Assembly: GCA_052055015.1 (NCBI GenBank)
Contig: JBQJIT010000004.1
Origin: Malassezia furfur
Lineage: Eukaryota
Reading direction: 5' to 3' (one strand)
Length of the DNA stretch: 64,000 nucleotides
In this document: positions 108 through 64,000 of the stretch, one piece after another
Layout: each line of letters opens with the position of its first letter
Position numbering within the stretch: the first letter of the stretch is position 1
Program-made: the position numbers and the translations under genes
The notes under the pieces: generated by a model
Databases searched by the model: none
Told to the model about the DNA's origin: nothing
What the model saw: only the letters and a program-made list of their open reading frames with translations

Positions 108-2457
108 CTACAGACGCATGGGCGACGTCGGCGCCGTGCCGCTCGGGCGCGGCATGCGTGCGCCCACGGGCATCGTCTCGGCGCGCTGCAGCGGGCGGCG
201 CGCAAACGCGTGCATCAACGAGGGCGGTGCGCGCGCACCTCCGATCTCGTCGGACGCCGTCGGCCGGCGGCTCGTCGCGGCCGCGCAAGGGGAGAAGGAG
301 GCGTCCGCCTCAAACGAGGAGTCGCCCGTGCTGCTGAAGCTCGTGTCGCGCTCCAGGGGCGTCGCGAGGCCGCTCGTGGTGCGTGGTGCGGGCGGCGCGG
401 GCGGCGCAATCGACTGCGGCGCGCCCTGCGCGTTGATGCGCGCCGACATCACCGAGAGCGCGGCGTAGTGCTCGTCGCCGTAGGCAAAGCTGCGGTTGCG
501 CACAAACTGCTTGCGGAAGCCCACGAGCTCCTCGGAGCGCCGCCGCAAGAAGCGCGGGTCGTCCATCGTGACGTACGCACACGGCGTGCACAGCTCGGGG
601 CACGTGCGGAAAAACTCGGCATACCCGCCCTGCAGCACGTACACGTCCGGGAAATGGCACCGCGGGTAGTCACTCGCCAGCGAGCGGTCGGCGGCGCGCA
701 GCGCCAGCGCCATGGACGGGCCGCGCTTCCAGCTGAATTCGCAGTGGAAGATGACAAGGAACTTGCGTGTGTCGCCCGCCTCGTCGGGCATGCCGCTCTG
801 CGTGCGCTCGGGCAGCGGCTGCGCGGCGTGTAGGCCCTGGCCAGGCGTCAAAAAGTAGGTCTGCACCTGCTCCACAGTGTTGAGGTTCCTCGCGCCCACA
901 ATGTGGCCACCTTCGTGCTCGTACGCAAAGCGGCAGTCTACAATCTGGAAACCCCGGATCTGGTCATTGTAGCGACCCTGCAGCACATCGCGCACCGTCT
1001 CGGGCTTGACGCGCATCAGCCCATCGCTCTTCACCGCAAAACACGGCAGTGTCTTGCGGTCCATCTCATACGACCCAAACCCGGGCACCCCAGGCGACAC
1101 GGGCGCGCTCGGCAATGGCGCGAGCAGATGGTTTTCCTTGTCTGCGGCATCCAGTGTCACATCCAGCGTCGTCTGGCACCTCCGCGCGCCCAGCCCGACT
1201 GGCCGGCTTTTGCGCAGAGACGCACGCACCGGCGAACCACAGTGCAACGACGGAGCCGAGCCACCAAGCATTAGCGCATCGTCCGACTCGTCGGCCGCAG
1301 CCGCGTCAGTTCCCCGCGCTGCCGCCGCGCGCGGAGAGAGCGTCGGCGAGGGCACGGTCGATACCAGCACACGGGGTGCGTCGCGTGTCCCTTGCACCTC
1401 GGCGTGCGAAAAGATGCCCGAAGCATCGGGCAGCGCCTCGGCCCGTCGCGCCAGGAACGGCGAAGAGCTCGGCGAGGAGCTCGTGGGGAACCCGGCCGGG
1501 TCCAAAATGCTTGGCGGCACCATGTCCGGCAGCACGCCCTGAGTCACCTGCGGCGACGCAGGGTGGAAAAAGTAATCGCCCATACCCCGCGGCGACGCAG
1601 CCGTACGCGAGCCCGACGCAAAACACGGGCGCTTCACCGTCTGCGGCCCGGAGAATGACCACGATTCGTCCGCCGACTCGTTCGACGTCGGCGGCGCGGG
1701 CAGCGGGGACGGCAACAGCTGCGCGGACGACGACGCGTGGGCATTGGTAGGGGGCCATGCCGTAGCCTGCATTGTCAGCATCGTTTTTCCCACATACACT
1801 TTGGGATCGTCCATGTGTGCGAACCAGGCGGTCGTGGCTCCAGGCGCGCGCCTCCTTGGCATCCTCGTCGCCCGGCTGTGTCACACGCTGATCCATCAGC
1901 GGATCACTCGCGCGCTGGAGCTGTCGTAAGGACGAGAGTCTTCGTTTCATGGGTGGCTCATGCGGCGGACTGAGGCAGTGCAGCTCCGTCTCAGAAGGAA
2001 GCTGCGGCAGGGAACGGCGAACGGTCGGGTCGGTGCGCCGCGAGAGCGCCGCACGCACTGGATGTACTGGTACGGCAGGCGCGGGCACAGGCACCGACAC
2101 CGCCTGGAAAGCGGCGGGCGACGAAATTTCCATCGCGTGCGGGGAGCTTTTGGGGTACGACGTTTCCATGCGGTTTCGCGTGCCCCAAAGCCCCGGCTGC
2201 GGGGCACGCATCCCTGCCGAGGGCGATACGGTGAACGGGTCCTCAGTGAGTACATCGCGCGTCGTGGTAGTGATGCGCGGGCGCGGCGGACCGCGTCCCG
2301 GGCTGTCGAGCGACGAGATGGACATGGACGAGCCGAACGAGTGGTCCAGCTCGTTTAACAGCGGCGCATCGCGCGCAACCGGCGACGAGAGCAGCTGCGC
2401 CTCGTCCATGCCCCACGCAGCCGGCACAATGTGCGGTGAGGAGAGTATGGCCGCCAT
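108..2457 (-). CDS. MIH1: M-phase inducer phosphatase (Cdc25/Mih1), 2 exons; intron 1767-1797 (31 nt)
   Basis: Rhodanese domain with IVDCRFAYEHEGGHI and catalytic HCEFSWKRGP (HCx5R). The GTATGT..GCTGAC..GCAG intron joins ORF 1306..2457 to ORF 108..1862 in frame (SQS|ATAWP). Confidence 0.9.
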
Positions 2458-2717
2458 GTAACCGTATAACTACTCAAGAGAGAAGGACACGGCAACAAAG
2501 ACGAGAGACTTGCCAAGGACAAAGGCTCGCGCGCGCGGTCACCGTGCGTCACAGCGCTTCAAACACACCCGCACCGCGTTCCAGTGACCCGACAAATTCT
2601 ACCGCGCGTGTTGCATTTGCTCTGTTGGTCTGCGGCCCCGGCCGGGATGCGGTTGGGCGCGCTCCAATTCATCAGAAACGCAGGCCCACCCTTCCTGCCT
2701 GCTACGTCACATTCGCG

Positions 2718-2756
2718 CACGTGAAGCCACGTGGTCAAGGCTTGGCCGAAAATTTT
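2718..2756. promoter_or_regulatory. Twin CACGTG boxes (2718-2723, 2728-2733) plus RRPE-like GAAAATTTT (2748-2756) in the divergent MIH1/POL5 promoter
   Basis: Motifs read directly. RRPE is the known ribosome-biogenesis element, and POL5 is a ribosome-biogenesis gene. Confidence 0.55.
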
Positions 2757-2791
2757 GTGCTCCACGCGCTTTTCCTGCAGCAGCACAGACA

Positions 2792-6304: not shown

Positions 6305-6609
6305 ATGAGCGCGAACCTGACGGAAGCCGACCAGAAGGAGCTGAACACGTTCTTGGACGCTGAGCAGTCGAAGGCCCGTATTCAGACGACCGTGCATGCG
6401 TTCACGGAGCGGTGCTGGGACCAGTGCGTCACCTCTTCGATCGGCACTCGTTTCGGCCGCGGCGAGGAGGCGTGCCTGGCCAACTGTGTCGAGCGGTACG
6501 TACCTGCACACTGACCGCAGTTTTCTGGACACGTCGCTATTCATTGTGCGTTGGGAGTGTGCTAATGCAGGTGAAAAAGCTCGAGAGCCAGCGCGGCTTG
6601 GCTGCCTGA
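6305..6609 (+). CDS. TIM8: Mitochondrial small Tim chaperone Tim8; introns 6496-6520 and 6546-6570 (25 nt each)
   Basis: Twin Cx3C (CWDQC, CLANC). Splicing restores CVERFLDTSLFIVKKLE. Confidence 0.92.
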
Positions 6610-7124: not shown

Positions 7125-8550
7125 ATGGCCTCGTCTCACTCTAGTGGCTCTAATGTTGTCGGCGGGCACTACCGCGTGGGCAAGAAAATCGGGGAGGGCT
7201 CGTTTGGTGTGATCTTCGAAGGCACCGACCTTTTGACGCACCAGCGCATTGCGATCAAATTTGAACCCCGTAAAAGTGATGCTCCTCAGCTGCGTGATGA
7301 GTACCGGACGTACAAGATTCTCAGCGGGAGCGTGGGTGTACCCCAGGTGTACTACTTCGGGCAGGAAGGCCTGCACAACATCCTAGTCATTGACCTGCTG
7401 GGCCCCTCGCTCGAGGACCTGTTTGACCTGTGTGGGCGTCGTTTCAGCATCAAGACGGTCGTGATGGCCGCCAAGCAGATGGTACGTCGTTAGCGCACTT
7501 ACCCAGATTACCCGTGTGCAGGCCATCCACGAGCGCAACCTCATCTACCGTGACATCAAGCCCGACAACTTTTTGATCGGGCGAAGCAGTAACAAGTCGG
7601 CCAAGACGGTGTACGTGGTCGACTTTGGTATGGCGAAGCAGTACCGCGACCCCAAGACGAAGCAACACATTCCGTACCGCGAGCGCAAGAGCCTGAGCGG
7701 CACGGCTCGCTACATGAGCATTAACACCCACCTGGGTCGTGAGCAATCGCGCCGCGACGATCTCGAGGCACTCGGACATGTGTTCCTCTACTTTTTGCGC
7801 GGCTCGCTGCCGTGGCAAGGTCTCAAGGCGGCGACGAACAAGCAAAAGTATGAGAAAATTGGCGAAAAGAAACAGAGCACGCCGATCAAGGAGCTCTGCG
7901 ACGGGTATCCCGAGGAGTTTGGCATCTACCTGAACTATGTGCGCAAGCTCGGCTTTGAGGAGACGCCGGACTACGACTTCCTCCGCGAACTCTTCACCAA
8001 GGTGCTCAAGAACCGTGGCGAGGTCGAGGACGGTGTCTACGATTGGATGCTGCTCAACAATGGCCGCGGTTGGCAGAACGATGCGTCGCGCGAGCCCGTG
8101 CAAGACAAGCCATCTGGCGCGCAGACGGGCACGAACGCTGCGGTCGCCTCGGGCCAGGCCGGCACAGGTGCCGCTGCTGCGCAGGGCGGCGCAAACCGAC
8201 TCAAGGCACCCGATGCGGCTGCCGGCGTGAGCACCACCGAGATTCGTACCGAACAGGGTGTTCCGGGTCTCTCGGAGCAAAACGGCAAGTCGCGTGGTGC
8301 TATGAGCGCCGACGCACAGCGAAACACGATGCGCTCGCCAGCGACGGGCGCGGTGAATGGCGCATCTAACCGGTACGACGACACACAATCCCCTCGTGCG
8401 TCGCAGCCGAAACGCGATGCCAAGCGCACCGATGCACCCGCGGCGTCGCAGGGAGCGAATGCGTACTATCAGCGCCCGCTGTATAATGCGCCGGAACGTC
8501 GCTCCTTTGGTCAACGGTTCGTTGACTTCTTGCTCTGTCGCTGCGAGTAG
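7125..8550 (+). CDS. Casein kinase I, Yck1/2 / Cki1 type; intron 7482-7506 (25 nt)
   Basis: [25 protein letters not shown] and LPWQGL CK1 motifs; C-terminal LLCRCE cysteines. Confidence 0.95.
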
Positions 8551-14668: not shown

Positions 14669-16935
14669 CTACACTTGCCAAGCACCCAGCGGGTCGGCAG
14701 GGACGTCGGGGCGAGGCGTCTCTGTGCGTGGCGAGCGGAGCTCCAAGTCGGGTGATGCAGACGTGGGGGTTGCGACGGGCTTGGATGCCCACGGATTGGC
14801 CGACGGCGGTATATTGATCCGGGCTTTCGATTCGCCTTTCGATTCGCCGCCAGGGGTCCGGCCTGCTTCCCAGGGTGTCAGAGGAGGGCTCGAAACGTGA
14901 CTCGTCTCTGCTCGGCGGTGCGGACTCGCCATGTGTGAGGACTCAGTATGATCGAACCCGGCAGAGCGCATCGCGCCTTGGACACGCCCCCATCCATCGC
15001 TGAAGAGCGAGCGCATTTTCGTCGTCGCCGCGTGTAGCGACTCATCGAGCGAGTCCGATTGTTCGCTCCGTGCCGGCACAGTGAGCGCATCATTCGTGGC
15101 GAGTGCGAGCCGCTCCTTGAGGCGGCGATTTTCCTCTTTTTCTAGGTCGAGATGCGAGTTGAGCTCGGCGTACGACCGGCGGAACAGGGCCGTCGAATAG
15201 CGCAACGCACCTGTGGAAGGGAGCAGTACGCCCATGTCGCCTCTCGGATCGCGCCGATCATCCAGCGCAGGGTTGTACTTCGCATTCTTCCACCGCGGAG
15301 CGATGTCCTTGTGCAACAATATGTCCCACACACTGGGCGTGCAATCGAAAGGTGCAGGTCCATGAGCTCGGGGCGTGCGCCGCTCGCGTTCGGTATTGTA
15401 CAAAAAGGTGCCCGTGCTGCCAGCATACACCTGGCGCAGAAGCTCTGCAAGGAAAGCGCCGTTAAACTCGAAGCGATCTGGGAACTGCGTCTGTAGCTGC
15501 GCGACACATTCCAGGAACTGGTGAAAGATGGGCGCACGTTGATGCGCAGCTGTCGTCTGGAATGGCGCGGTAAAGTGCTTGGTAAAGTCCCAGAAGGAGC
15601 CACCACCCTGGGAGTCAGCGAGTGGGTCGTCCACCTGCACACCGTCCACGTCAAACAGGGGTTCGTTGTGTGGCACACGGAGATCAAACTTGTCCGCTCC
15701 AAGACCCACGAGCCCACTGCGCTCTTGGAATTGGTGCCCGAAACTGACCCAGTCCTTTTCGATGAGCACCGCAAAGCCATGGAGCGTGCGGTAATACGGA
15801 TCGAGGCAGAGCCCCGCAAGCGACGTCAACTGTGCCGTACGGTCCCAGCCGTCCGAGCAGTGCACAAGCACATGGGATGCATGGACGTGGACATTGCGCA
15901 CAATCATCAGCGTGCCTTCAAGTAGATCACCCACGTGTTTGAGCCAGTTGGAGCGCCGCAAGGCAATCTGGTCCAGCGGCGCAGGTGCCGTGCCCTCAAT
16001 GGATGACCGGGTATCTGCACGAAGCACGACCAGCGCCCGGTTCAATGCATCGCGCATCACATGGATGTTCTCGACACCGAGGTACACCTTCTTGCAGTTG
16101 CGGTAGTGCTCCATATTCTCGGTGCCCGCGCCCTTGGCCATATTCGCCATGGCATTGGTCGTGGGGCGTGCATCCACCAGCAAGTTTGTCGCAGTCGACC
16201 CATACACGCCGTGCGCATGGTCTTCTGCGGAGCTGGTCGCAAAGATCGCCTCGACCAGCTTCTCATCCTGGATAGAGCGATTCTGCTTTATGCCAACAAG
16301 CGGCTGGCTGCACCGCGTGATGGTGCCTTGACCTGTCCAATGCAGGTAGGTCAAGACGGGAATACGTCCTTTGCTCCGGTGCTTGGATGCGTACGCTAGC
16401 GTCGAGTCGCTGATCAATGCTGGGACGACGAGCAGGGCAGGGTACGTCGGAATCAACGAATAGTCGCTGTTGATGGTCGAGAAACGCCATGCCTTGGTCG
16501 TAGACCCCACTCCCTGCCGCTTGAACTCAGCTGCAGGATTGTATATCCGCCATCCATCGCTGGGCGTGGTGTGCGGCGCCTTGAACGCGTACAGTTTTTC
16601 CACCGAATCTGGATGAGCCACGACCGCGTACCGATGCTGGCGAAAGCACGGAGTTTTTCGGCGACACGGAGGAGTGTACCCTCATCCCGAAAGCCCAGCA
16701 CGAAGCATTCGTGCGTGTACAGGTAGAGAGCTAGGAGGTAGCGCATCCCCCCGGTACCCCGCGCCATGGCCGAAGCCTCCCGCTTGGCCTGCGCAATGAG
16801 CGCAATCTCCCAGCGCTCCTCTGCACCATCCCATGTCAAAATTACATGATAGGGCGTTATCTGCACTGTACAAAAAGTGTCCACACCCGGCCGGAGCAGC
16901 CATACATCCGGCACCTCCAGGACCGGCGGCGCCAT
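14669..16935 (-). CDS. YMR1: Myotubularin-family PI3P phosphatase; intron 16609-16631 (23 nt)
   Basis: [10 protein letters not shown] active site and EKDWVSFGH. The PH-GRAM-like first exon (MAPPVLEV) is joined in frame by the intron. Confidence 0.92.
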
Positions 16936-16986: not shown

Positions 16987-18658
16987 CTATACCAACCGTT
17001 TCGTCATGTCTGGGTAAGTGGAGGGCATACGTACAAGGCCCCTCGAGTTCGTAGCCGAGCCTGCGGTAGTAGTCGCGCGTGCCGACGCCCGAGATCACAG
17101 CGAGCTTCACGCTTCCATGTTCGTCACGGGCGATCTGCTCGGCTTGTTCCATGAGCAGCGTACCGAACCCCTGGTGCTGGAATTTGGTCGGATCGCGGCT
17201 GTGAAGCGGCACCGCACTGCCGTAGGTATGCAGCTCGCGCACAATCGACGACTGTCCGTCCTTGAGTAGCTCGGGACGGTAGGTACCGGTAGAAGAGCAC
17301 TTGCGCAGGCGCAATAATGCAACAAGGATATCTTTCTCCGGGTCTTCGTAGGACAGGAACGACTCCCACCCCCCATTCGCGGTGTAGTCACGTCGAATGA
17401 ACTCGATCTCTTCAGGGCGCACCTTGGTATGGATCTCGTGCAGCCCCACCTCGCGGTACCGTACGTCCCGGCACGTCACACCAAAGTCGCGCATGCGTTC
17501 AAGCGCCATCTCACGCAAGTTGCCATTCTCCACGCCTGAGGAGACGAGCGGCATGGGGATATCGCGCTGGACACGGTATACACGCGTCCACGGCGGGACA
17601 AGCGCAAGAATTCGAGCAATCACATCCACCAGGAAAGAGGGTGTGTAGTTTTTGTAACGCCCCGTGCGCCAGAGCTCATACAACCCCGTGCCGCGGATCA
17701 CCAGTGTAGGATACAGTTTGAGGCCATCAGACCGGAACGCAGGGTTCTCAAAATACTCTTTGAACTGCTCCATGTCACGTTCCACTCCAACATTGGGGAG
17801 ATCGGGCATCATGTGCGCGACGACCTTGTATCCTGCGTCCTTAGCGAGATGAAACGTTTCGCACACGGCCTTGACGGTGTGTCCACGGTTGGTGTCGCGT
17901 GCTACGTCTTCGTAGACGCTCTGTACACCAATTTCCAGGCGTGTGCATCCATACCGCAGCATCTGCGAAAGATGCGGTCGCAGACAGTAGTCCGGCCGCG
18001 TCTCGATGGTAATGCCGATGCATTTGGTCTGCGCACGTTCCGAGAAACGCACAGCTTCATCCACATCGAGGCCGGTGTATCCACTGAGCGCATTGTGCAG
18101 CTGCGCGATAAACTGGTTACGGTACTCTTCCGAGAGACTCATAAAGGTACCCCCCATGATAATGTATTCCACTTTGTCGACGCTGTGCCCCAGCTCGCGC
18201 AGCTGCTGCACTCTCCCGCGGCTCTGCTCGTAGGGATCGTAGCGCGCACGAATGGCTCGCATTGAGGTTGGTTCGTAGCCCGTGTATGACTGTGTGCTGT
18301 ACTCAAAGTCGGAGTCTGGGCCGCCAGGGCAGTAGACACAAATGTTGCCCGTGAGCGCGATATGCGGGCATCGGTGTGGCTTACACATCACTGCGACGAC
18401 AGCAATTCCACTCGCACTGCGCACGGGCTTGGCGCGCAGTGCGGGCACAAGCGCCTTGCGGTAGGTGTCGGGGATGGCGGCGATGATGTCGGTCAACCGA
18501 GGAACGCCACCATATCCGTGCTTTTTGCACGCTGCGCCGCGAATTGCATTCAGTGATACGGGACGGGATTCTTCATGCGCCTGTACGAGCTGCGACGCGA
18601 TATCTGCGCACACACGCAGCAGGCACTCTGCCGACGTCATCGCCGTCGACACGCCCAT
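16987..18658 (-). CDS. ELP3: Elongator catalytic subunit Elp3; intron 17010-17034 (25 nt)
   Basis: Radical-SAM motif [19 protein letters not shown] motif FQHQGFG. Splicing gives the conserved end GPYMTKRLV*. Confidence 0.96.
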
Positions 18659-18735
18659 CGTGAAAAGACACTTTTTGGTGCGCTGAGTCAGCAAGACCCT
18701 GGCGACGCACAGTCCAACCCCGGGTCACGACGATC

Positions 18736-23156: not shown

Positions 23157-23295
23157 TACCCCAATACTCGGACACCACCCAACCTACCTGGCAAACAGGG
23201 AACCACGAAAGCGTCTACCAAGTTACACATATCTACACATTACGGTGAAGACCTGTCGGTCAGTATTGCTCAACAACATGGTAGGGAGTGCGTGA

Positions 23296-45510: not shown

Positions 45511-46848
45511 CTACTCCAGGTCCGCGGCGTCCGGCTCGGCGTCGGCCGGCTCGATGATGGAGCTCGCGGGTTGCCAGACCATGACGATATTGTCCTCGGC
45601 AGCGGTAGCAACCTTGCATGGGTCCTGCGGCGACCAGGCCATGTCGGTGGGGCGGCTCGTATGCCCGCCGTGCACAAAAAGCAGCTCGGCAGGCCCGTCC
45701 TCGGCGTCCTCGGCGGTCTGCTCCTCGCCAATGCGGCTCAGGTCCCAGATGTTCACGCGGCGGTCCGCAGAGGCGGAGGCGAGCATCGTCTCGTGGTGCG
45801 GCGACCACGCAATCTGTAGCACCTCGTCGGTATGCGCTTCGAGCGAGTGCAGCGCGACGCTGAGATTCCGCAAATCCCACAGCGCGACGGTCTTGTCGCT
45901 CGAGCCGGTGGCCAAAATGTACTCGCTCGCGAGGCTAAACGACACCGCATTCACCTCAGCAGAGTGTGCCTCGACGCGGTGCTTCGGCGAGTCGGGCGAC
46001 TCGCGCGTGTCCCACAAGAGCATTTGGCGGTCGTCGCCCACGGACGCGAACAGGTGCTCATGGAAGTTGTGCCACGCGACGTCTTCGACGATAGATGAGT
46101 GCCCACGGTACGTCTGCACGGGATCAAGCACTGTCTTGTCTTTTTGGTACGCATTCACGTCCCAGTGGCACACGGTGGTGTCTTCCGACGCCGCAAGAAT
46201 GTGCCCCTGGCGCACCGGGTTCCACGCGAGGCCGTAACCCTCTTTGGTCTGCCCGCGCAGCGTGATGTCTGGCCGGCATTTGCCGTCCGGATCCGGCTGG
46301 TTGCTGTGCTTGGTGCGGTCGAACACGTAGGTGAGGCCACTCACGGCGCGCGTTGCGATCAGATCGCAGTTTTGCGGGCAATACCGCGCGCGGTTGACCT
46401 CGCCGTCGTGGTTGATGCGCTGCGTGATCTGGATCCGCGGCATCGTCGAGGAGTAGGAGCCAATTTCTGTGTGAGCAAGGCGCCGCCAACGTACCGCCTT
46501 TTTCCTCGTCGTAGTCCTTCACCTCGAGCTTCGCGTCGCCCTCGGCGTCAGTGAGCGGCAGGTTGGCCGACGCAATCTGCACGTAGTTCTGGTCCTGCCC
46601 GGAGGTGTGTGTGCCCATGAGCAGACGGTGCCGCGCGTAGCCCTTGTCGGCAAACACCTCCTTGTCCGGGAACCACTGCATCGTGAGCGTCGGCCATTCG
46701 AGCGCGTGCGTGATGACCATATCATAAAGGAACGGCGAATTCTTCTTCCAGACTGGATTAGCGCGCGACACGCACTCTTGTACTCCTCGTTGGATATCAT
46801 GGCCAGGTTGGCCGACGCCGCGTCCTCGGCAATGTCCACGCCCGCCAT
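45511..46848 (-). CDS. HAT2: Histone-binding WD40 protein Hat2/Msi1/RBBP4; introns 46753-46775 (23 nt) and 46467-46494 (28 nt)
   Basis: Spliced NEEYKIWKKNSPFLYD, HALEWPTLT, HDGEVNRARY and EDGPAELLFVHGGH. Confidence 0.92.
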
Positions 46849-53526: not shown

Positions 53527-55146
53527 TCAGCGCCCGCCGTTGAACCGCTTCGACACGCCATAGTCGTCTGCGTCGGGCGGCCCTCGCTTCTGCCCGCCAC
53601 GGCCCGCGCGGCGATCGGAGCGCGTACGGTCGCGATCGCGTCGGCTGTACCGGTCGCGGTCGCGGTCACGGTCGCGGTCGCGATCACGATCACGGTCGCG
53701 GTCGCGGTCGCGCCCGCCGCGTGGCGCATCGTCGTACGTGTACCGTTCCTCGTCGTGCCGTGGGGTTGTCTGCCGCCGATGCCGGCGATCACCTTCGCCA
53801 TGCGGCGCCGATGCACCATAGTCCAGTGCATCGCCAGGACCCGCCTCGCTGTCCCGGTCGTTGTAGTACTCCCGCCTCGTGACCGTAGGATGCAGCTCCG
53901 GCGCATACGCATCGTCGTCCGGCGGCGGCGATCGATCGTCAGGTCCTGCACGTCCGCTACGCCGCGATGCGTTTCCCGAGCGTGGCCCATTGCGAGTGTC
54001 GCGTCCTCCCCGCCGAGACCGTGCACCTGGAGCGTCACCGTCATCGGCCTCATGGCCGCTTCGCGCGTTGTCCGCCGGCGGTGCAACACCTGGTGCGGTC
54101 GGTAGCTGTGCGGCGCCTGTCATCCAGGGCGGCACATCCTGGCCCTCGGCCGGCGGCATGCCCATCATCGGCATGGTCTCGGCCGGTGCGCCCTGCGGCG
54201 CACCAGGAGGCATCATCATTGGCCACTGCATCCCTGGCATGCCCATCATGCCCGGCGCAAACATGGCAGTCAGGTTTGCCATGGGGTTCTGTGCATCACC
54301 AGACGCGCCCGGCGCGAATCCCGGCTCGGCGCCAGCTTCGCCTCCATCGGCAGCTTGCAGCGTGTTGGCAAACTCGGCGCGCGCCTGGCCCATGCGATTC
54401 TTTTGCGCACACCACATGGCCCATGTCGCCTCATCAAAGCCGTAGTTGAACCAGTCGCTCAGGTTGGCCCCCGGCCGGCGCCAGGGCTTTTCAGGCAGCG
54501 AATCAATGTCCACTTGGTATATGTTGAGTTTCGAGCTCGTGTCATCCTCAGTCTCGTAGATCGCATCCGTCGGCGGGTATCTCAGCGCCTCGGGCTTGGG
54601 CGACAGCACCAACTCCGGCGCCGTAATGCCGGCCGATGCAGGAGGACCTTCCGGCTCGCCTGCATCCCCGGTGGCCGTCGAGACCGCAGGCGCCGCGGCG
54701 CGCGGCAGCGCCGGCACAGCAGCAGGCGCACTCACTGCAGGCGCGGTTTGAGATGGCAATGGCTCCGCGGCAGGGCTGGGAACTGCAGGCACGGACGGCA
54801 CGTCCTCGCTGCCCGCGGGAGTACTCGCCGGCGCCTTGGCGGCAGGCGTCTCAGTTGCGGCCTTGCTGGGGCTCCTGATGGGCACGGGAGCGGGAGCATA
54901 CGTTGCGGAACGTGAAGGAGGTACTGCTGGTGCATTCGGATCGATAATGAACTCGATATCCTGCGGTCAGAAGATGGCACGTACCGAATCGTCGCTGTCG
55001 TCCTCGTCGTCGTCACCCGATGCGGAGCCTTCTGGTGCCGGAGCAGGAACAGGCGCATTTGACTCTGAGGTTTGCTCCGTCGGCGCGGATGCCGCAGGCG
55101 CAGCAGGGGCCTCGTCCCCGTACAAGAACGCGTCGTCGTCGTCCAT
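53527..55146 (-). CDS. FIP1: Polyadenylation factor Fip1; intron 54961-54984 (24 nt)
   Basis: MDDDDAFLYG start, EKPWRRPGANLSDWFNYGFDEATW Fip1 motif, RD-repeat tail. Confidence 0.92.
53620..53712 (-). repeat. Hexamer repeat (CGCGAC/CGTGAT-type) encoding an Arg-Asp dipeptide run in Fip1
   Basis: Tandem cggtcg/cgatca units on the + strand. Confidence 0.8.
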
Positions 55147-55260: not shown

Positions 55261-55705
55261 ATGGCATCCGCAGCGGCCGGTCGCTTCAGCTCTTTCTGGA
55301 ACGGGCCGACGGGTCCCAAGACGGGTACGTGACGCACCGCGTGAGTGCTTATCTAGTGTTTTTCTGGGCCCCTGCAATGAAGTGGGGCATCGTCCTGGCT
55401 GGGATCAACGACCTCTTCCGCCCGGCTGACCAGATCTCGGTCGCTCAGAACGCCGCACTCGCACTCACCGGGTCGATTTGGGTCCGGTATGTGCCTGTGT
55501 ACTCACTCAGCTATTGCTTCGTGATTCACCCGGTGAACTACTCGCTGGCGGCTGTCAACTTCTTTGTCGGCTCGAATGGGCTGGTGCAGTTGGCCCGCGT
55601 AGCTCAGTATGTGGTGCATGCTCACACAGTTACCGTTATACGCACCCTGAGGCGGCCACGAAGCCCGCTGCTGTTGCGCCGTCGCCCGACACCAAGCCAC
55701 ACTGA
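55261..55705 (+). CDS. MPC2: Mitochondrial pyruvate carrier subunit; introns 55325-55356, 55487-55510, 55607-55629
   Basis: Spliced FWNGPTGPKTVFFWAPAMKWG..TGSIWVRYCFVIHPVNYSLAAVNFF. Confidence 0.92.
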
Positions 55706-55959: not shown

Positions 55960-56734
55960 ATGGCCTCTTCGTTCCGGCAGACGGGCCGCAAGATCGTTGC
56001 GTACGTTGCGTACACTCACGCAGCATTGGTCGCAACTTTGCAGACCACGCCAAGGAGCTCAACAATGCCGTGCCGACAGAGCCGTTCTTCTTTCTCAAGC
56101 CGACATCGAGCTACATTGGTTCCGGCGACGCGATTGAAATACCGCGTGGCGTCGTGGCACATCACGAGGGTACGTGCATGTCTTATGGCAGTGGAACTTG
56201 CCGTGATTCTAGGACAAAAAGCGCGTGATATCAAGGCAGACCAGGCCAACGACTACATCGGCGGTTACGGTATGTGCGAAGCACTTATCCAGCTCTTGCG
56301 ATCGATATGACCGCGCGGAACGTCCAGGACAAGGCAAAGAAGGCTGGACTGCCATGGTCCACTGCCAAGGGTTTTGACACCTTTACGCCGATCAGTGCGT
56401 TTGTGCCCAAAGACGCGATTGCCGACCCAAGCAACGTCAATCTCTGGCTCAAGGTCAATGACGAACTTCGGCAAAACGGCAACACGCAGGACATGATCTT
56501 TGATATCTCTGCGTTGCTGGCCCATGTCTCGTCCATTATGACGCTGGATGTAGGCGATGTGATCTTGACCGGTACGTGTCGCCTTCTGACGTAGGCACGC
56601 CCAAGGGCGTTAGCCAAATCAACCCTGGGGACCAAGTCACCGCTGGGATGCAGATTCCGGGGTCGTCCAAGATCTTGGCTGAGCTCAAATTGCGTGCCTT
56701 GCAGCGCAAGGGAGGCTTTGTTTTCCAGGGATGA
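55960..56734 (+). CDS. Fumarylacetoacetate hydrolase family protein (FAHD1/Fmp41-like); introns 56001-56023, 56170-56191, 56270-56292, 56572-56594
   Basis: Spliced KIVAIGRNFADHAKEL, PFFFLKP, HHEVELAV, DMTAR, KGFDTFTP and DVILTGTPKGV. Confidence 0.92.
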
Positions 56735-56752
56735 TGAATACTATACAACTAG

Positions 56753-57371
56753 TTATGCAGTGGATGACTGGCGCTTGGTTAGTATACGCATGCATACCTG
56801 CTCCAATGCAGCCACCTTTTCGGCAAGCCGCTTGCGCTCCGCACGGAGCTTGTCGAGGGACCTACGCTGCTCCTCAATCTCGTTTTGTGTCACTAGTGCC
56901 GCGACGGACGGCGAGGACCGCGACGTGTCACCAAGCATGCCCTGTCCCCCTGACCGTGCCTCAAGCTGTGCAAGCTCTTGTGTGGCCTGGTTGCGCAGCG
57001 TGCGCGCGTGTCGTTCGTCCTTGGCGAGCGCGTCTTCGGCGCGCACGATTAGTTCTCGAAGGAGCGGCGCAATCTCGGCAGCCACATGGTCGCGTGCTTG
57101 CCGCACATCGCGCTCCGACACTAGATCAAAGTGCTGCGTTAGTCAGAGAGTGTGAACGTACGCGCTGGCTCGCCATAGCGGTGCGTAGCCGATCGAAATC
57201 ACCCGTGTGATGCGCAAGAATTTGGTTGGTTTCGGCGATCTGCATGAGATGAGCACGTACGGTACCACACGAGGCTCGCACGCTTTCGATACATGCGTGA
57301 ATGCTGTTCAACTGATGCACGCTGGCCGCAGGGTTTCCGTAAAGCGACTGACGCGGGGGCATTCGCGCCAT
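56753..57371 (-). CDS. SPC19: DASH/Dam1 complex subunit Spc19; introns 57240-57260 (21 nt) and 57134-57161 (28 nt)
   Basis: CIESVRAS..DFDRLRTAMASQRHFDLVSE..EIAP coiled-coil pattern of the Spc19 family. Confidence 0.75.
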
Positions 57372-59818: not shown

Positions 59819-60958
59819 CTAGATCCCCTGCTCGTTGCGCTTGCGCTTCCGCGGCTTAGTCTTGTCCTTGGCACGGACCATCTCCTGCGTGTGCGTGGTG
59901 TCACTAGGTGATTTCGACTCGCCGCCCGAATCGGCGGGTTCCACCGAAAGCCGCGATACGGCTCCGCGGAAGGTCTGTCGCGTCTCTGCTGTCAGTTGAG
60001 CCGTACGCACGTGCACGGATCATCAAAGATCGGCAAGTAGCAGAGAGGGTATCTTTGGCAGACGTAGCCGTCATGCCCATCAATGTTGCCCTGGATGTAA
60101 GCTTGGTAGTGGATACGCACAGATTCATCACATCGTAAGGCGCACGGAGACTCATGGCAGCCAACGCGCCGCTAGAGAAAATCACGCCTTTGCCATTCGT
60201 CACACGTAGGAGATCCCGTGCATTGCTGAAGAGATTGCGCCGTGCAGTCGGCACATCGCGGGCCTCCCGCGAGGGATCCAAAGCATCGCCGTAGGTAATT
60301 TCAAACACCACCCCATTGGCGAGCGCCGCACCCACAGTGCTTCGCTTCAAATGGAAGGGAAGACGAGGGGAGGCCGCCAAATCTAGCGTGATGATGTCAA
60401 CACTAAACGGCTTCAGCTCACTAAGCGTGATGCACGCATGCTGGAAGGCCGCGTCGGTCAGCGGCATCACGGAGAGCAGGTCGTATTGAAGGAGTGCATT
60501 GCTGTTGGCCGTGACAAAGCCTGTCCCTGACTTGATTAGGTTGTCCTTGTCAAGGACTACTGTGAGGCGGCTTAATTGCGTGAGTGGTGCGGCTTGGACC
60601 GAGGACTTGCCGCACACACGGGGGTCCAACTTCGGAAACGGAACCCGAGGGCGCTGCTGCTGCCGGCGAAATGGATTGATTTGTGTGGATGGGTCAAACT
60701 TGCCATACACCGTCTGATTGTAGGCAATTACATTGTACCCCACTGTATGAGCTCACTACACGTACATGATCGCAGCTCGTAGGTAAGCGTAGTGATGCGC
60801 TGCTGTTCCGCCGGCAAGAGGCGCGCAAGCGGGTCATCATCTGGAGCCTCCTCTAACACCGGCGCAGAGGAAGGTTGATTGTTCTTCTTCCCCTTCTTCG
60901 TTGGCACATCCACTGCTAAGCCGTGCGACGGCCAAGGTATATTCAGATCGTAAAACAT
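59819..60958 (-). CDS. RPP1: RNase P/MRP subunit p30; introns 60743-60765, 60091-60120, 59986-60010
   Basis: MFYDLN, LGYNVIAYN, LSRLTVVL, YDLLSV, GVVFEITY and GVIFSSGA..LRAPYDVMNL. Confidence 0.9.
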
Positions 60959-61098: not shown

Positions 61099-62006
61099 AT
61101 GCCACCCTATGTGGTGCTGAGGCGCGCAAATACCACCGATGATCTCGTGCCTACTACAGACCAACGCAACACAATTATTGTCGCATGTGTATATGCGCTG
61201 GCTATCCTTCTCCTGGTAGGTCCGTGCGCGAACACTTCTTACGCCAGTGGAACATCCCAATTCTCAAGGTCATTTTGTACCCATTCAAGCTTTTGGTGCG
61301 TTGACTTCGCTAATGAAGACGGTTGGATTCCATGAATTTTCTCACGCTTTGATGGGCGTACTCACCTGTGCAAAAATAGAGTCGATCCAGCTCGACCCCG
61401 ACGAGGGCGGTGCAACGCGGATGCGTGGGGGAATCCACCTGCTCACGCTGCCGGCGGGCTACCTCGGGTCGTCATTGATCGGCGCTATTCTGATTGCCTG
61501 TGGCTTTGACGAACGAGCTAGCAAGGTTGCTAGTCTCGTCGTCGCTGCTTTCTTCCTTATAATGCTGTGGTGGGCAAGACGAAGTTGGGTGTACGTGCGC
61601 AACACTAATGGAAACAGTACCTGGCTCCTGATTATTTTCATGGTTGGCCTGTTCGTCCTGTTTTGGGTATGCTACTCTACTTACCGCAGCTGGTGGAAAG
61701 CTCAGTCGCTCTACGATATTTCGTGCTTTTTATTGGCGTGATGAACTGCCTATATTCCGTGTGGGATATTTGCGACGATCTTATCTTCCGCAAAGTGAAC
61801 GAGTCAGACGCGACGGCCTTTGCTAAGTTGGTTGGCTGCTGTCCACCGCAAGTGTGGGGTGTCGTATGGCTGCTGATCAGCATCGCCTTCTTCGCAGGCG
61901 GGATTCTGTATGTGTCTGTGCCTTACCCAGCGTCGGTCTCGTGCTGTTCAAAACGCCCGTCTCAGAGCAAAAGGCAGACGATTTCTTGCGTGTTCCTACA
62001 CGCTAA
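61099..62006 (+). CDS. Peptidase M50B-like membrane protein; introns 61216-61247, 61296-61318, 61591-61617, 61667-61689, 61908-61930
   Basis: Spliced YPFKLLTVGFHEFSHA (HExxH), DPDEGGAT, LPAGYLG and NESDA; several TM helices. Confidence 0.88.
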
Positions 62007-62579
62007 AGGATGTTTCTATTGTACATAGCAATTTCACAAACTAAGCCTTAACATATCGTTCACAAGCTCATCCAGAATAACAAAAGAACATGCGTGTCCA
62101 GCCATTAGTTCTACAACATGCCACTTTTTCTTGAGCCGTAATTTGAGCGCAGCTGTTTCCGCGAATATTCTCCATCATGGCTGGCACCGGTGTAGCCATA
62201 GTTGCGGGCATCAAATTGAAAATTTTCTTATACTGTGTACCACTGCGCACAGTGGCGCATTAAGACGAAAGAGGAAATTGTTGGGCCCTGGGCATTAGAC
62301 GAAGCGATGCCAAGTGGTGTAGAGGCCTCCGGCCTCCGGAGCTCCGCCACGATTGGCCCTCAAATCCGCTTCTTTTTCGCAGCTTCTGAATTTGGAGCGC
62401 AATGCTGCTGCGCATCGGACGAGATTTCGTCATCGACATTGAGCCGGTGGTTTGCTTGAGAAACTTAACAAGTTTTTTTGAGCCACGCTTGGTACTTCTT
62501 TCGCCATGATCCGCACGGTGCTACCACCGAGGCGATTTACGAGAATGTAAATGTTGCCTCGTTAGCTGCGATGCTGACT

Positions 62580-62780
62580 ATATGTAGAGCAGCTGGTTAA
62601 AAACACGCCCCTTAAGCACAATTTGAAGTCACTCCACGCTTCGCCTTGCTCGATTGCTGTAGCTGCCCTACGACAGACGGGCGAATTGATATTCCGAAAT
62701 CAGCTGAATTATCAACAGGTACACCAAGGTCAATATAGCCACCTTGGTATTGATTGTACTTCATTCCCATGGCCCCAGGA
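62580..62780 (-). ncRNA. Candidate intronic structured RNA with H/ACA-like 3' hairpin (5' end uncertain)
   Basis: AGGGCAGCT/AGCTGCTCT stem followed by ACA+3 nt, two upstream hairpins, branch GCTAAC just downstream. Confidence 0.35.
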
Positions 62781-62958
62781 CCAGGGCAGTAAAGGACACG
62801 AGCCACATGAACTGGAGAAAATGCACGGACGCGGGGGTTGCGATGACTAAGCGCGAAGTAGGTACATGCTCCGCAACGGTGTGTGGCATACCATCTCCCA
62901 CGTACGCTTCGCTCGCCCAACTCCTCCTCGTTTGTGTAGGAGTCTTGTCCAGCTGACA

Positions 62959-64000
62959 ATGTCGCAAATTATGAACCTCGACCCCCTCGTTTCTGAGAAG
63001 TTCAAGGCGGCCGTCGATGCCGGTGATGCCTTCTTCTTCGACTCGACCGTGCACATTACGGGCAACCAGGACAAGAATCTCCCGCCTATTGCTTCGGTGC
63101 CGTGGCAAGTTCGGACGGTACCTGCTCTACTCAAGAAGCCTACAGCTAGCAAAGAGGAGCCGAAGGAAGATCCGAAGGATGAAAAACCGAAGCAAAACCA
63201 GAAGGATGTGTTTGCGCCTCCCTACGTACCGAACCTTCTCGTAAAAGAGTTCACTGATTTTACGGTGCTGCTGAACAAGTATTGCGTGCTTCCCAAGCAC
63301 TTTTTGATGGTGACAAAAGGTGCGCCGCGCGACTCACCCAGACTTTGTCAACCAGGAGCTTCCGCCCTCCCCTGAAATGCTTGCGTCGGTGTATCTCGTA
63401 ATTGACAGGCATCGCGCAGAGCATCCTGAAGCGGAGTTGCTGGGGTTCTTCAACTGCGGAAAAGACAGTGGTGCATCACAGCCGCACTGTCACTTCCAGA
63501 TGGTGGAGCTGGTGCCCGAAGATTCTTCGATGGCTGTGCCGATTGAGAACCTGTTGCAGCACATTGAGCGCGATGGGAAGGAGTACAGTACGTCTGCGGC
63601 TGACATAGGCGATGTTCATTTGCTGCCCGTTCCATGGCAGCATTTTGTCGTGCTGCTTGACCCCCCGGGCGACGAGACGCAGCTCACGACTTACTTGGGC
63701 CACCGCTTCACGCAATTGCTTGACTGCATGTTTGCTGCCGCGCGGGACTTGAGTGATATTGAAAAAACAGGACCGCGTCGTGGACCACCCCAGTTCAATA
63801 TCTTGCTCACCAAGCGAGCGATGCACCTTATTCCGCGGCGCCAGGAGGGCTTTGACCTGCGTACTACTGACTGGGCCCCGTACAAGGGCGGGGAAGCGCC
63901 GGAACATACGGGCACACTCAGCGTGAATGCGCTCGGTACGTCTTCCTTACTGATGCAGGGTACGCGGGTCTCTTTTTGACGAGGCACGAAGCCGAGTTGG
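62959..64000 (+). CDS. APA2: Ap4A phosphorylase (ATP adenylyltransferase), truncated by window end; introns 63320-63341, 63588-63608, 63936-63958
   Basis: PALLKKP, LLNKYCVLPKHFLMVT, FFNCGKDSGASQPHCHFQ, MHLIPRR and spliced LSVNALGYAG. Confidence 0.9.

Follow-up and report, generated by a model that had tools for sequence, protein, structure and literature searches.

Spliceosomal introns of 21 to 41 nucleotides in 20 genes of a Malassezia furfur genomic window

We analysed a 64,000-nt stretch of the Malassezia furfur genome (assembly GCA_052055015.1, contig JBQJIT010000004.1; hereafter the window), in which 20 genes are interrupted by very short introns (Table 1). Both strands were scanned with a strict pattern, GT[AG][CT]G[CT]..CT.A[CT]..[CT]AG, taking the first branch motif and then the first YAG. 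The scan returned 87 matches of at most 80 nt, with a sharp peak at 21-28 nt and 12 matches of exactly 23 nt. Against 200 dinucleotide-preserving shuffles of the window, which define the chance expectation, matches of 21-25 nt are enriched about tenfold (30 observed versus 2.9 +/- 1.65 expected, maximum 8), and those of 26-30 nt are also in excess (14 versus 4.0 +/- 2.0); there is no excess at 31-45 nt (13 versus 16.2 expected), and no strict match of 20 nt or less occurs on either strand of the window (1.6 expected). The reversed sequence gives six strict matches in the 21-25 nt bin.

Table 1. Introns and candidate introns of the window (frame test, codon-usage frame test with its outcome in quotation marks; retained, effect of leaving the segment in the transcript; profile, position in the Pfam profile)
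Gene	Feature	Position	Strand	Evidence
Rhodanese-domain (108-2457)	31-nt intron	1767..1797	-	not a multiple of 3; frame test "spliced", upstream coding score weak
Tim10/DDP zinc-finger	25-nt intron	6496..6520	+	retained: in-frame stop; frame test "spliced"; exon 1 = profile 2-49 of 64
Tim10/DDP zinc-finger	25-nt candidate after 25-nt micro-exon	6546..6570	+	motif only; frame-test flank merely 25 nt
Protein kinase (7125-8550)	25-nt intron	7482..7506	+	retained: stop 3 codons in; frame test "spliced", high scores
Myotubularin-like phosphatase	23-nt intron	16609..16631	-	retained: frameshift; frame test "spliced" 13.6/14.3
ELP3	25-nt last intron	17010..17034	-	exon end = residue 551 of 557 of yeast Elp3 (6qk7_C); splicing adds 7 residues + stop
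ELP3	28-nt candidate upstream of likely start (ATG at 18657)	18683..18710	-	frame test "other"; 5'-UTR intron or chance match
Glycolipid-transfer protein (GLTP)	25-nt intron 1	23563..23587	+	retained: in-frame stop; frame test "spliced"
GLTP	24-nt intron 2	23732..23755	+	profile 35 to 37 over junction; read-through: ~8 residues unmatched by profile
GLTP	23-nt intron 3	23884..23906	+	profile 80 to 83 over junction; frame test "spliced"
GLTP	22-nt intron 4	24043..24064	+	profile 129 to 130 over junction; frame test "spliced"
GLTP	34-nt candidate near stop codon	24202..24235	+	retained: stop after 7 codons; spliced: 9 codons more; downstream not coding-like
Class II fructose-bisphosphate aldolase	41-nt intron	24605..24645	+	retained: in-frame stop; frame test "spliced" 18.9/21.6; profile from 26 in exon 2
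Mitochondrial ribosomal protein L31	33-nt intron	26000..26032	-	retained: in-frame stop; profile from 10 in exon 2
P-type cation ATPase	41-nt intron	26317..26357	+	Cation_ATPase_N profile 36 to 38 over junction; frame test "spliced"
ATG11/ATG17-like	27-nt intron 1	38410..38436	-	retained: in-frame stop; frames consistent
ATG11/ATG17-like	22-nt intron 2	38249..38270	-	retained: frameshift; frame test "spliced" 25.9/21.5
Pam17	27-nt candidate	42527..42553	-	motif only; in-frame, stop-free; Pfam uninformative
Pam17	33-nt intron near 3' end	42096..42128	-	retained: two in-frame stops; profile 156 of 165 at exon end
Pmp3-domain	26-nt intron	45399..45424	-	retained: frameshift; frame test "spliced"
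Pmp3-domain	27-nt candidate	45224..45250	-	motif only; in-frame, stop-free; Pfam uninformative
RBBP4/CAF1C-type WD40	23-nt intron 1	46753..46775	-	frame test "spliced"; CAF1C_H4-bd profile from 6 in exon 2
RBBP4/CAF1C-type WD40	28-nt intron 2	46467..46494	-	frame test "spliced" 33.2/22.7
Fip1	24-nt intron	54961..54984	-	retained: in-frame stop at intron codon six
Mitochondrial pyruvate carrier (MPC)	32-nt intron 1	55325..55356	+	retained: three in-frame stops; MPC profile from 16 in exon 2; frame test weak (exon 1 merely 21 codons)
MPC	24-nt intron 2	55487..55510	+	profile 57 to 59 over junction; read-through: 8 residues outside profile span
MPC	23-nt intron 3	55607..55629	+	retained: frameshift; frame test "spliced"
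Fumarylacetoacetate-hydrolase family	23-nt intron 1	56001..56023	+	frame test "spliced"; profile from 5 in exon 2
Fumarylacetoacetate-hydrolase family	22-nt intron 2	56170..56191	+	profile 55 to 63 (5 exon residues unaligned before junction); frame test "spliced"
Fumarylacetoacetate-hydrolase family	23-nt intron 3	56270..56292	+	profile 87 to 89 over junction; frame test "spliced"
Fumarylacetoacetate-hydrolase family	23-nt intron 4	56572..56594	+	retained: in-frame stop; frame test "spliced"
DASH subunit Spc19	21-nt intron 1	57240..57260	-	in-frame, stop-free; homologue alignment
Spc19	28-nt intron 2	57134..57161	-	junction gap-free versus homologues; frame test "spliced"
Spc19	30-nt candidate last intron (or 24 nt, 56774-56797, AAG acceptor)	56768..56797	-	motif only; in-frame either way
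RNase P subunit p30	23-nt intron 1	60743..60765	-	frame test "spliced" 14.8/14.7
RNase P p30	30-nt intron 2	60091..60120	-	in-frame, stop-free; profile-span test
RNase P p30	25-nt candidate intron 3	59986..60010	-	retained: frameshift; frame test "other", upstream exon merely 26 codons
M50B-like	32-nt candidate, GTAGGT donor	61216..61247	+	read by eye; joins two hydrophobic frames
M50B-like	23-nt candidate, AAG acceptor	61296..61318	+	6+8+5+1+3 layout as in other 23-nt introns; joined sequence same in P0003
M50B-like	27-nt intron	61591..61617	+	profile 115 before; 135 after next intron, over 16-codon micro-exon
M50B-like	23-nt intron	61667..61689	+	profile 115 to 135 jointly with 61591..61617; frame test "spliced"
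M50B-like	23-nt intron	61908..61930	+	frame test "spliced"; joined sequence identical in P0003
ATP adenylyltransferase (APA2)	22-nt intron 1	63320..63341	+	junction gap-free versus 13/15 homologues
APA2	21-nt intron 2	63588..63608	+	in-frame, stop-free; homologue alignment
APA2	23-nt intron 3	63936..63958	+	junction gap-free versus 14/15 homologues; P0003 mis-modelled

Curation kept 43 of the 57 strict matches of at most 45 nt as introns, the same number, size range and number of genes that a first-pass annotation of this sequence had proposed. Their lengths (21 nt, two; 22, four; 23, eleven; 24, three; 25, six; 26, one; 27, four; 28, three; 30, two; 31, one; 32, one; 33, two; 34, one; 41, two) have a mode of 23, a mean of 26.2 and a median of 25 nt. 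The annotation had counted 12 introns of exactly 23 nt, and the twelfth is the M50B-like candidate at 61296-61318, which has an AAG acceptor and is additional to the eleven curated ones. Seven of the 43 are candidates only, with the motif alone or a frame test that gave no clear call (those starting at 6546, 18683, 24202, 42527, 45224, 56768 and 59986). Elp3 homology begins 8 codons past the ATG at 18657, downstream of the 18683 candidate.

The other 14 strict matches are false or alternative. Two of them are coding: removing 43735-43773 (39 nt, in a DEAD-box helicase) deletes Helicase_C profile positions 68-83, and the alignment of ELP3 to yeast Elp3 runs through 17135-17163 (29 nt) without a break; as judged from these alignments, both are negative controls that behave correctly. 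Matches at 15608-15642 and 48282-48310 were read as coding on the codon-frame test alone, six are antisense matches inside exons or gene models on the opposite strand (7290-7313, 16391-16435, 17664-17704, 23813-23853, 23965-23991 and 37646-37672), and 6821-6855 is without coding support. The remaining three are alternative donor choices for kept introns or ones next to them: the 21-nt match at 17010-17030, which overlaps the last ELP3 intron and leaves a frame without a nearby stop; 61224-61247; and the 23-nt form at 61595-61617, which breaks the M50B-like frame.

Junction-level support exists for 17 of the 43 introns. Pfam profile positions are continuous directly at seven junctions, jointly across a micro-exon at two more, and approximately at 7482-7506 (exon 1 covers Pkinase profile positions 1-91, exon 2 positions 111-251); a profile-span test backs the junction at 60091-60120, where the read-through form of RNase P p30 has 27 residues for 17 profile positions, the excess of 10 residues corresponding to 30 nt. 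One junction (17010-17034) is backed by the PDB alignment to yeast Elp3, and five by gap-free homologue alignments that include smut-fungus relatives outside Malassezia. Only these non-Malassezia homologues and the Pfam and PDB comparisons are independent, since annotated Malassezia proteins were themselves predicted with intron models. Among the 30 curated introns with a length not divisible by 3, 25 shift the codon-usage frame in precisely the way expected from splicing (chance 1/3, P = 2e-8), a statistic not fully independent of selection because curation rested partly on whether removal joined open frames; the same test on the uncurated strict matches gives 25 of 37 (P = 2e-5). The test returned "readthrough" for three curated introns and "other" for two; the flanks of all five are short or non-coding.

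The claim that removing these segments restores reading frames does not apply to the two shortest introns, which lie at the positions and on the strands first proposed: both are multiples of 3 and stop-free, so only homologue alignment supports them. In Spc19, none of 18 aligned homologues has residues in the 7 columns of the 57240-57260 segment, at least 15 of them spanning the site, and the spliced form is gap-free. In APA2, the 7 columns of 63588-63608 are empty in 17 of 18 homologues, including those of Ustilago, Sporisorium, Tilletia and Violaceomyces; the lone exception (P0004) is a read-through ORF call. Such ORF calls in relatives carry inserts at the same sites (8-9 residues at APA2 intron 2; 9 residues at Spc19 intron 2, in P0039, where another upstream frame leads into exon 2), which indicates that the intron positions are common to relatives. 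At APA2 intron 1, the two homologues without a gap-free junction are P0001, which carries 8 extra residues, and the mis-modelled P0003.

The best named protein hits of the window are all from Malassezia and place it in the furfur/brasiliensis group. Both 21-nt introns are already spliced out in the NCBI proteins of M. furfur, whose Spc19 is 92% identical to that of the window, and M. brasiliensis. The 24-nt form of the last Spc19 intron agrees with the annotated M. furfur protein P0038. The closest relative, the M. brasiliensis NCBI model P0003, is identical to the window product over 105 and 30 aligned residues; it fuses two genes, misses the 22-nt and 23-nt APA2 introns, and has a longer intron at the 61216..61247 site of the M50B-like gene. 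Its missed introns, like the low minimum intron lengths needed for M. restricta (below), give anecdotal support to the earlier remark that this class is shorter than the minimum of many gene predictors.

The architecture of the introns is rigid: a strong 6-nt donor (GTACGT, GTATGT or GTGCGT) comes first, then a spacer of 6 nt or more, a CTNAY branch site and, one base further, CAG or TAG. As placed from the motif, the branch adenosine is never closer to the 3' end than 5 nt, although a distance of 4 would have passed the scan, and in 25 of 42 introns the distance is exactly 5 nt. In all 25 introns of at most 25 nt it falls at intron positions 16-20 and 5-7 nt from the 3' end (5 nt in 18), which leaves no room for a polypyrimidine tract, as had been noted at the outset for the two shortest.

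In our view the segments are very probably ordinary Malassezia introns of the U2-type GT-AG spliceosomal class, shrunk near the smallest size that fits the three splicing signals. The order of a strong donor, a spacer of six or more unconstrained bases, a yeast-like CTNAY branch box, one base and CAG or TAG puts the branch adenosine at positions 16-20, mostly exactly 5 bases from the 3' end. Recognition would proceed by intron definition, with the strong donor and the branch consensus as cues; the 3' site would be the first YAG to occur 5 or more bases past the branch adenosine, with the polypyrimidine tract uninvolved, and the geometry of the catalytic core may set the 21-nt floor and the 5-nt tail.

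The first-pass annotation had inferred that U1 and U2 could hardly bind such introns together, which would imply a changed route of spliceosome assembly. On this reading the introns are real, but with 15-19 nt from donor to branch adenosine the U1 snRNP and the U2 snRNP with SF3b could not occupy them together, and early factors (a U2AF/Mud2-type reader of the polypyrimidine tract, or peripheral U1 proteins) would have been lost or remodelled. The uniform branch position and the lack of room for a tract speak for this, as does a study of human cells that reports a minimal productive donor-to-branchpoint distance of 46 nt, which its authors ascribe to the limited room for assembling U1 and U2; for Stentor, the authors conjecture that a steric clash is avoided and describe non-conserved regions in branching factors. 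The window, however, holds nothing that bears on spliceosome composition, and its signals are strong and conventional. Moreover, Stentor, with the branch adenosine at position 10, keeps all snRNAs, the three U1 core proteins and almost the full set of U2 proteins, and myxozoans, with a median intron of 22 bp, keep U2 snRNA, U2AF1 and U2AF2; short introns therefore occur alongside a canonical core and do not by themselves require a different machine, and we regard a changed assembly as unlikely here.

Among the segments of 21, 24, 27 or 30 nt that are in-frame and stop-free, some might also be something other than obligate introns, namely short lineage-specific coding insertions or optionally retained introns yielding two protein forms. 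In Paramecium, intron lengths divisible by 3 are depleted; no depletion of this type is seen in the window, where 13 of 43 lengths are divisible by 3, four with an in-frame stop if retained and nine stop-free. The segments at 42527, 45224, 56768 and 60091 are without homologue alignment, three of the four having the motif only. Yet all six segments that were tested act as insertions absent from the family (23732, 55487 and 61591 by Pfam, 60091 by profile span, 57240 and 63588 by homologue alignment), each with the full donor-branch-acceptor layout, of which about three per window are expected by chance in that size bin, so that this reading appears improbable. No observation favours an origin of the frame breaks in assembly errors or pseudogene decay, with coincidental motifs, and it is hardly credible: the three-part motif with fixed spacing sits at every break, it is some ten times more frequent than in shuffles, and the spliced products match homologues end to end.

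The ordinary-intron reading agrees with what is published for the genus. M. sympodialis has 5350 introns with a mean of 30 bp, 99% of them supported by RNA-seq; in M. restricta the median is 30 nt, and annotation required the minimum intron length to be set to 20 and then 15; a review states that Malassezia genes have "very short introns". The size range in the window is, as first observed, like that of ciliates and microsporidia and, newly, of myxozoans, but setting it apart from typical fungi overlooks this published Malassezia norm. The micro-introns of the window are real and striking, and they are an already recognised and annotated trait of a genus with compact genomes of 7-9 Mb.

We scanned both strands of the window for a strict pattern, in which a GT[AG][CT]G[CT] donor is followed by the first CT.A[CT] branch box and then by the first [CT]AG acceptor, and used 200 dinucleotide-preserving shuffles of the window as the null model. 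The scan returned 87 matches of up to 80 nt, with a sharp peak at 21–28 nt and 12 matches of exactly 23 nt; the two 21-nt sequences named in the first-pass annotation (intron 1 of Spc19 and intron 2 of APA2) are present where it had placed them. Between 21 and 25 nt, 30 matches were observed against 2.9 ± 1.65 expected (shuffle maximum 8), i.e., the combined donor-branch-acceptor motif is about tenfold over the shuffles, and the reversed sequence gave 6 matches in this bin. At 26–30 nt, 14 matches were observed against 4.0 expected; at 31–45 nt there was no excess over the shuffles (13 against 16.2), and the strict scan found no match of 20 nt or less in the window (1.6 expected). The short class thus exceeds chance by far, and its lower limit of 21 nt is sharp. 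A relaxed scan (any GTNNGN donor, YTNAY branch, and non-G before AG) left only 14 further matches after frame, open-joint, and coding-score filters, 11 of them multiples of three and not distinguishable from coding sequence; it was left out of the counts, and it also overlooked two extra introns of the M50B-like gene that were seen by eye.

Curation kept 43 of the 57 strict hits of up to 45 nt, the same count as the 43 introns in 20 genes originally proposed. Their lengths are 21 nt (two introns), 22 (four), 23 (eleven), 24 (three), 25 (six), 26 (one), 27 (four), 28 (three), 30 (two), 31 (one), 32 (one), 33 (two), 34 (one), and 41 (two), giving a mean of 26.2, a median of 25, and a mode of 23; 36 of the 43 are 30 nt or shorter, and none is below 21 nt. 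The two M50B-like candidates outside the strict pattern are 23 nt long with an AAG acceptor, and 32 nt long with a GTAGGT donor.

The window has a G+C content of 62% and encodes typical fungal housekeeping genes. In homologue searches the named best protein matches were all from Malassezia: the Spc19 exon shares 92% identity with an M. furfur protein; the M50B-like gene is identical to the predicted M. brasiliensis protein P0003 across 105 + 30 aligned residues; and the APA2 segment shares 81% identity with P0003 and 63% with proteins of M. yamatoensis and M. psittaci. Since the best named matches are from Malassezia, we treated the window as a chromosome stretch of a putative furfur/brasiliensis-group Malassezia. 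ORFs called after deletion of all strict hits of up to 45 nt gave models for about 23 loci, and Pfam, run exon by exon, named 19 of the 20 intron-bearing genes: rhodanese-domain, Tim10/DDP zinc-finger, protein kinase, myotubularin-like phosphatase, ELP3, GLTP (glycolipid transfer protein), class II fructose-bisphosphate aldolase, mitochondrial ribosomal protein L31, P-type cation ATPase, ATG11/ATG17-like, Pam17, Pmp3-domain, RBBP4/CAF1C-type WD40, Fip1, MPC (mitochondrial pyruvate carrier), fumarylacetoacetate (FAA) hydrolase family, Spc19, RNase P subunit p30, and M50B-like. The twentieth contains two ATP adenylyltransferase domains according to Pfam, and its homologues are named APA2.

A stop-codon-only ORF heuristic proved too permissive in this G+C-rich DNA, and a codon-usage frame test was used instead: a log-odds model, trained on ten Pfam-supported long exons, assigned a coding frame to the flanks of every strict hit, up to 150 nt each way. 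Among all 37 strict hits whose length is not a multiple of three, 25 show the frame shift that splicing predicts, 9 behave as read-through, and 3 fit neither (P = 2e-5 for 25 of 37, against a chance of one third each). For the curated introns of this kind the fraction is 25 of 30 (P = 2e-8), a figure that is not fully independent, as the curated set was picked partly by ORF joining. The 13 curated introns that are multiples of three comprise four with an in-frame stop and nine with none.

Continuity in Pfam profiles, PDB sequences, or homologues confirmed 17 of the 43 junctions. In the Pfam test we asked whether the profile positions of separately scanned exons run on across the intron, as they do at three junctions of GLTP (positions 35/37, 80/83, and 129/130), in Cation_ATPase_N (36/38), in MPC (57/59), and in FAA hydrolase (87/89, and 55/63 with five exon residues unaligned). 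In the M50B-like gene the profile runs from 115 to 135 over a 16-codon micro-exon flanked by introns of 27 and 23 nt, and in Pkinase the positions are 91/111 with 14 residues unaligned. Read-through of in-frame introns would add residues that the profile does not match: eight in GLTP (24 nt), eight in MPC (24 nt), and ten in RNase P p30 (30 nt). The donor of the 25-nt last intron of ELP3 falls exactly where the alignment to yeast Elp3 reaches residue 551 of 557, and three further junctions, of introns of 28, 22, and 23 nt, are gap-free in homologue alignments (see the table).

For the two 21-nt introns the first-pass argument has a gap: frame restoration cannot support them, because both are multiples of three without an in-frame stop. 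At the APA2 site the seven columns are empty in 17 of 18 homologues, among them those from Ustilago, Sporisorium, Tilletia, Violaceomyces, and Rhizoctonia, and the spliced form gives a gap-free alignment. The only exception is P0004, an ORF call with an insert of 8–9 residues at this site, as would be expected from read-through of a similar intron. Homologues of Spc19 came from searches for proteins of similar length and from representative searches (the protein has about 180 aa from a downstream ATG; a search for longer proteins gave no matches). At its site none of 18 aligned homologues has residues, although at least 15 span the site, and the conserved flanking blocks join seamlessly. It is homology, not frame, that argues for both as putative introns. 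In addition, the NCBI proteins P0038 (M. furfur) and P0003 already have the two 21-nt introns spliced.

The 14 strict hits that were dropped comprise four read as coding, six antisense hits within exons or models of the opposite strand, one without coding support, and three alternative donors of kept introns or of neighbouring ones (see the table). Two of those read as coding, in the DEAD-box helicase and ELP3, are complete donor-branch-acceptor motifs that arose by chance in conserved coding DNA; both exceed the modal length class (39 and 29 nt), and their branch-to-end distance is off the 5-nt mode. Seven of the 43 are candidates only, and for the 27-nt candidates in Pam17 and Pmp3 the Pfam span tests gave no information. 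The candidate at 18683 precedes the likely start codon of ELP3 and could be a 5′-UTR intron or a chance match. The first ORF-based ELP3 model had an over-extended N-terminus, because the 121-codon open frame upstream of the most likely ATG has a poor coding score. Pairs of micro-introns also enclose micro-exons of 25, 48, and 49 nt; the 49-nt one is backed by Pfam continuity, and the 25-nt one, in the Tim10-like gene, is a candidate.

Coordinates of introns, candidates, rejected hits, and associated features in the window
Feature	Position	Strand	Length (nt)	Remark
Spc19 intron 1	57240-57260	-	21	putative, from homology
APA2 intron 2	63588-63608	+	21	putative, from homology
Intron	57134-57161		28	gap-free junction
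APA2 intron	63320-63341		22	gap-free junction
Intron	63936-63958		23	gap-free junction
Last Spc19 intron	56768-56797	-	24 or 30	candidate; AAG or CAG end
AAG candidate	61296-61318
Candidates only (by coordinate)	6546, 18683, 24202, 42527, 45224, 56768, 59986
snoRNA host intron	23253-23408	-	156	GTACGT donor, CTGAC branch box
C/D-box snoRNA (Rfam snR56)	23298-23381	-
Micro-exon	6521-6545	+	25	candidate; Tim10-like gene
Micro-exon	61248-61295	+	48
Micro-exon	61618-61666	+	49
ELP3 ATG	18657	-		most likely start
Open frame upstream of ELP3 ATG	18711-19073			121 codons
M50B-like and APA2 locus	61135-64000	+
Rejected, DEAD-box helicase	43735-43773	+	39	coding; removal would delete Helicase_C profile positions 68-83
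Rejected, ELP3	17135-17163	-	29	coding; yeast Elp3 aligns straight across
Rejected	15608-15642			read-through coding by frame test only
Rejected	48282-48310			read-through coding by frame test only
Rejected	6821-6855			without coding support (frame test)
Rejected alternative	17010-17030		21	wrong ELP3 end; 25-nt form right
Rejected alternative	61595-61617		23	frame broken; 27-nt form fits
Rejected alternative	61224-61247		24	displaced by 32-nt GTAGGT form, read by eye

The anatomy of the introns was tabulated for 42 of them. Donors are GTACGT in 21, GTATGT in 8, GTGCGT in 7, and others in 6; the branch box occurs in eight CTNAY variants (CTGAC 10, CTCAC 10, CTAAT 5, CTAAC 5, CTTAC 4, CTCAT 4, CTTAT 3, and CTGAT 1); and the acceptor is CAG in 35 and TAG in 7, with AAG in one extra candidate. 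The GT and AG ends, present in 43 of 43, follow from the construction of the scan. The CTNAY box lies 5–12 nt from the 3′ end in all 42, and, counted from the branch A, the last base lies 5 nt away in 25 introns, 6 nt in 6, 7 nt in 4, and 8–12 nt in 7; a distance of 4 nt, though permitted by the scan, occurs in none of the 42. Among the tabulated introns, 25 are no longer than 25 nt, and their branch A falls at positions 16–20 (mode 18). The 23-nt class is laid out as a 6-nt donor, an 8-nt spacer, a 5-nt branch box, one base, and a 3-nt acceptor, and the 21-nt introns have a 6-nt spacer; no composition bias was found in the spacers of the tabulated introns. The introns have 54% G+C, against 62% for the window, and T makes up only 14% of the bases between the branch box and YAG. 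A layout this tight leaves no space for a polypyrimidine tract, so the geometry described in the first-pass annotation is correct. Saccharomyces-type introns likewise rely on strong donor and branch boxes, the donor being a hexamer, rather than on a pyrimidine tract, and budding-yeast introns are several-fold longer than those of the window; the branch box here is a degenerate pentamer, whereas the donor and branch boxes of Saccharomyces are near-invariant.

For the last Spc19 intron there are two possible ends, an AAG (24 nt, tail of 5 nt) and the next CAG (30 nt, tail of 11 nt). Both keep the frame, and the annotated M. furfur protein agrees with the AAG end; an AAG may therefore serve as acceptor when it lies at the preferred 5-nt distance, and the AAG candidate at 61296 has the same pattern. 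The only long intron identified in the window, of 156 nt with its branch A 7 nt from the end, holds an snR56 snoRNA (59.8 bits against a gathering score of 54), the only match in an Rfam scan of the window, which suggests that an intron remains long only if it has a cargo.

By their ends, their donor and branch consensus, and the protein-restoring effect of their removal, we classify these as predicted U2-type (major) GT-AG introns. They resemble the ultra-short (<30 nt) class in length (median 25, mode 23, narrow spread), in having no polypyrimidine tract, and in a branch A only a few nucleotides from the acceptor, but not in the A+T-rich composition and weak motifs of ciliates and myxozoans; thus, they work like this class, and their composition is not the same. 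They are also typical of the genus. The curated annotation of M. sympodialis ATCC 42132 lists 5350 introns, which average 30 bp and have RNA-seq support in 99% of cases (PMC5389616, Table 2); the median intron of M. restricta KCTC 27527 is 30 nt (PMC9241646, Table 1), and for the M. restricta annotation the lower bound on intron length was set to 20 for BRAKER and to 15 for AUGUSTUS (PMC6473144). A review speaks of “very short introns” in Malassezia genes (PMC7426719), and an older M. globosa annotation gives an average of 76–79 nt (PMC4634964, Table 2), probably inflated by overlooked short introns. This is the same phenomenon in the same genus, with slightly shorter introns in the window (mean 26.2, against the published mean of 30 and median of 30). 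Since genus papers report very short introns, and P0038 and P0003 already splice the two of 21 nt, they are a known and annotated Malassezia trait, and the present result is a good description rather than a discovery. A fixed 5-nt branch-to-acceptor tail and a 21-nt floor are not described in the available portions of PMC5389616, PMC9241646, and PMC6473144. In the CC-licensed PMC and bioRxiv literature, to which subscription journals (including that of the original M. globosa genome paper) do not belong, we found no paper on branch-point geometry, minimum intron size, or splicing mechanism in Malassezia.

Among more distant systems, the 15–16 nt introns of Stentor coeruleus are alike in their narrow lengths near the physical minimum, their GT-AG ends, a fixed branch A position, and a 5-nt 3′ tail, which is the modal tail here (25 of 42). 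They differ in being about 76% A+U without a strong branch consensus (PMC9505925), whereas the window introns have strong CTNAY and GTRYGY motifs, and in a floor of 15 nt as against 21 nt in the window. Similarly, the compact or parasitic genomes of myxozoans, dicyemids, and microsporidia have introns with medians of 22–27 bp, in which the polypyrimidine tract is minimal or absent (PMC13644364); unlike myxozoan-type introns, those of Malassezia keep strong splice motifs. In the available text of the same source, the 2026 list of lineages with introns below 30 bp (ciliates, Microsporidia, and Dicyemida) does not name Malassezia.

Malassezia has strong, yeast-like signals in a G+C-rich genome, with no pyrimidine tract and a tail of mostly 5 nt. 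We propose that such introns would be recognized across the intron through the two strong boxes, donor and branch; the acceptor would then be the first YAG at least 5 nt past the branch A, and the 21-nt floor together with the 5-nt tail would represent the tightest loop tolerated by the catalytic center. Because the 15-nt introns of Stentor have the same 5-nt tail, the analogy suggests that a geometric limit at the second step may be common to Stentor and Malassezia. The first-pass annotation had gone further and proposed an altered route of spliceosome assembly, in which U1 and U2 could hardly occupy the intron together. If their early complex cannot form, assembly would be modified across the genus by their sequential occupancy or by the loss of the factors that read the tract. 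Whether this is so is a legitimate question, because human splicing fails when the donor-to-branch distance is below about 46 nt (PMC11291888), and the 15–19 nt from donor to branch A seen here is about a third of that minimum. However, Stentor, whose branch A is at position 10, retains the full set of snRNAs, the core U1 proteins, and almost every U2 protein (PMC9505925), and myxozoans, whose introns have a median of 22 bp, retain U2 snRNA as well as both U2AF subunits (PMC13644364); we consider an altered assembly unlikely. Overall, the observation is confirmed, and its earlier interpretation is partly supported.

The claim that gene predictors miss these introns stands in part: P0003 lacks the splicing of the 22-nt and 23-nt introns of APA2, but splices the 21-nt one correctly. 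In this model (444 aa) the M50B-like gene is fused to APA2, and most of the M50B domain is dropped, in comparison with the window. Unspliced ORF calls of related Malassezia (P0039, P0004, and P0001) read through orthologous introns: P0001 has an 8-residue insert at the 22-nt APA2 junction, and P0039 has a 9-residue insert at the position of the 28-nt intron and enters Spc19 exon 2 from another upstream frame. Because these inserts fall at the intron sites of the window, intron positions are conserved among related Malassezia; and since the inserts are of 9, 8–9, and 8 residues against introns of 28, 21, and 22 nt, the lengths suggest small indels between relatives. The micro-introns are short enough to defeat default gene finders, and the gene sets of the clade deserve a re-check in which introns of 15 nt, or shorter still, are allowed, because the public model of the closest relative, P0003, fuses two genes and skips two micro-introns at this locus.

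The main value of these results lies in the geometric rules, in the caution they give to annotators of the clade, and in a possible tractable system for studying minimal-intron splicing. The layout puts explicit, testable numbers on how short a spliceosomal intron can be: 6 nt of donor, 6 nt or more of spacer, 5 nt of branch box, a single base, and YAG. The signals of this organism follow a strong consensus, and it is amenable to culture and engineering. M. furfur and M. sympodialis are reported to be transformable, so Malassezia, if the altered-assembly proposal is true, would offer the most tractable cells for measuring how small a spliceosomal intron can physically become.
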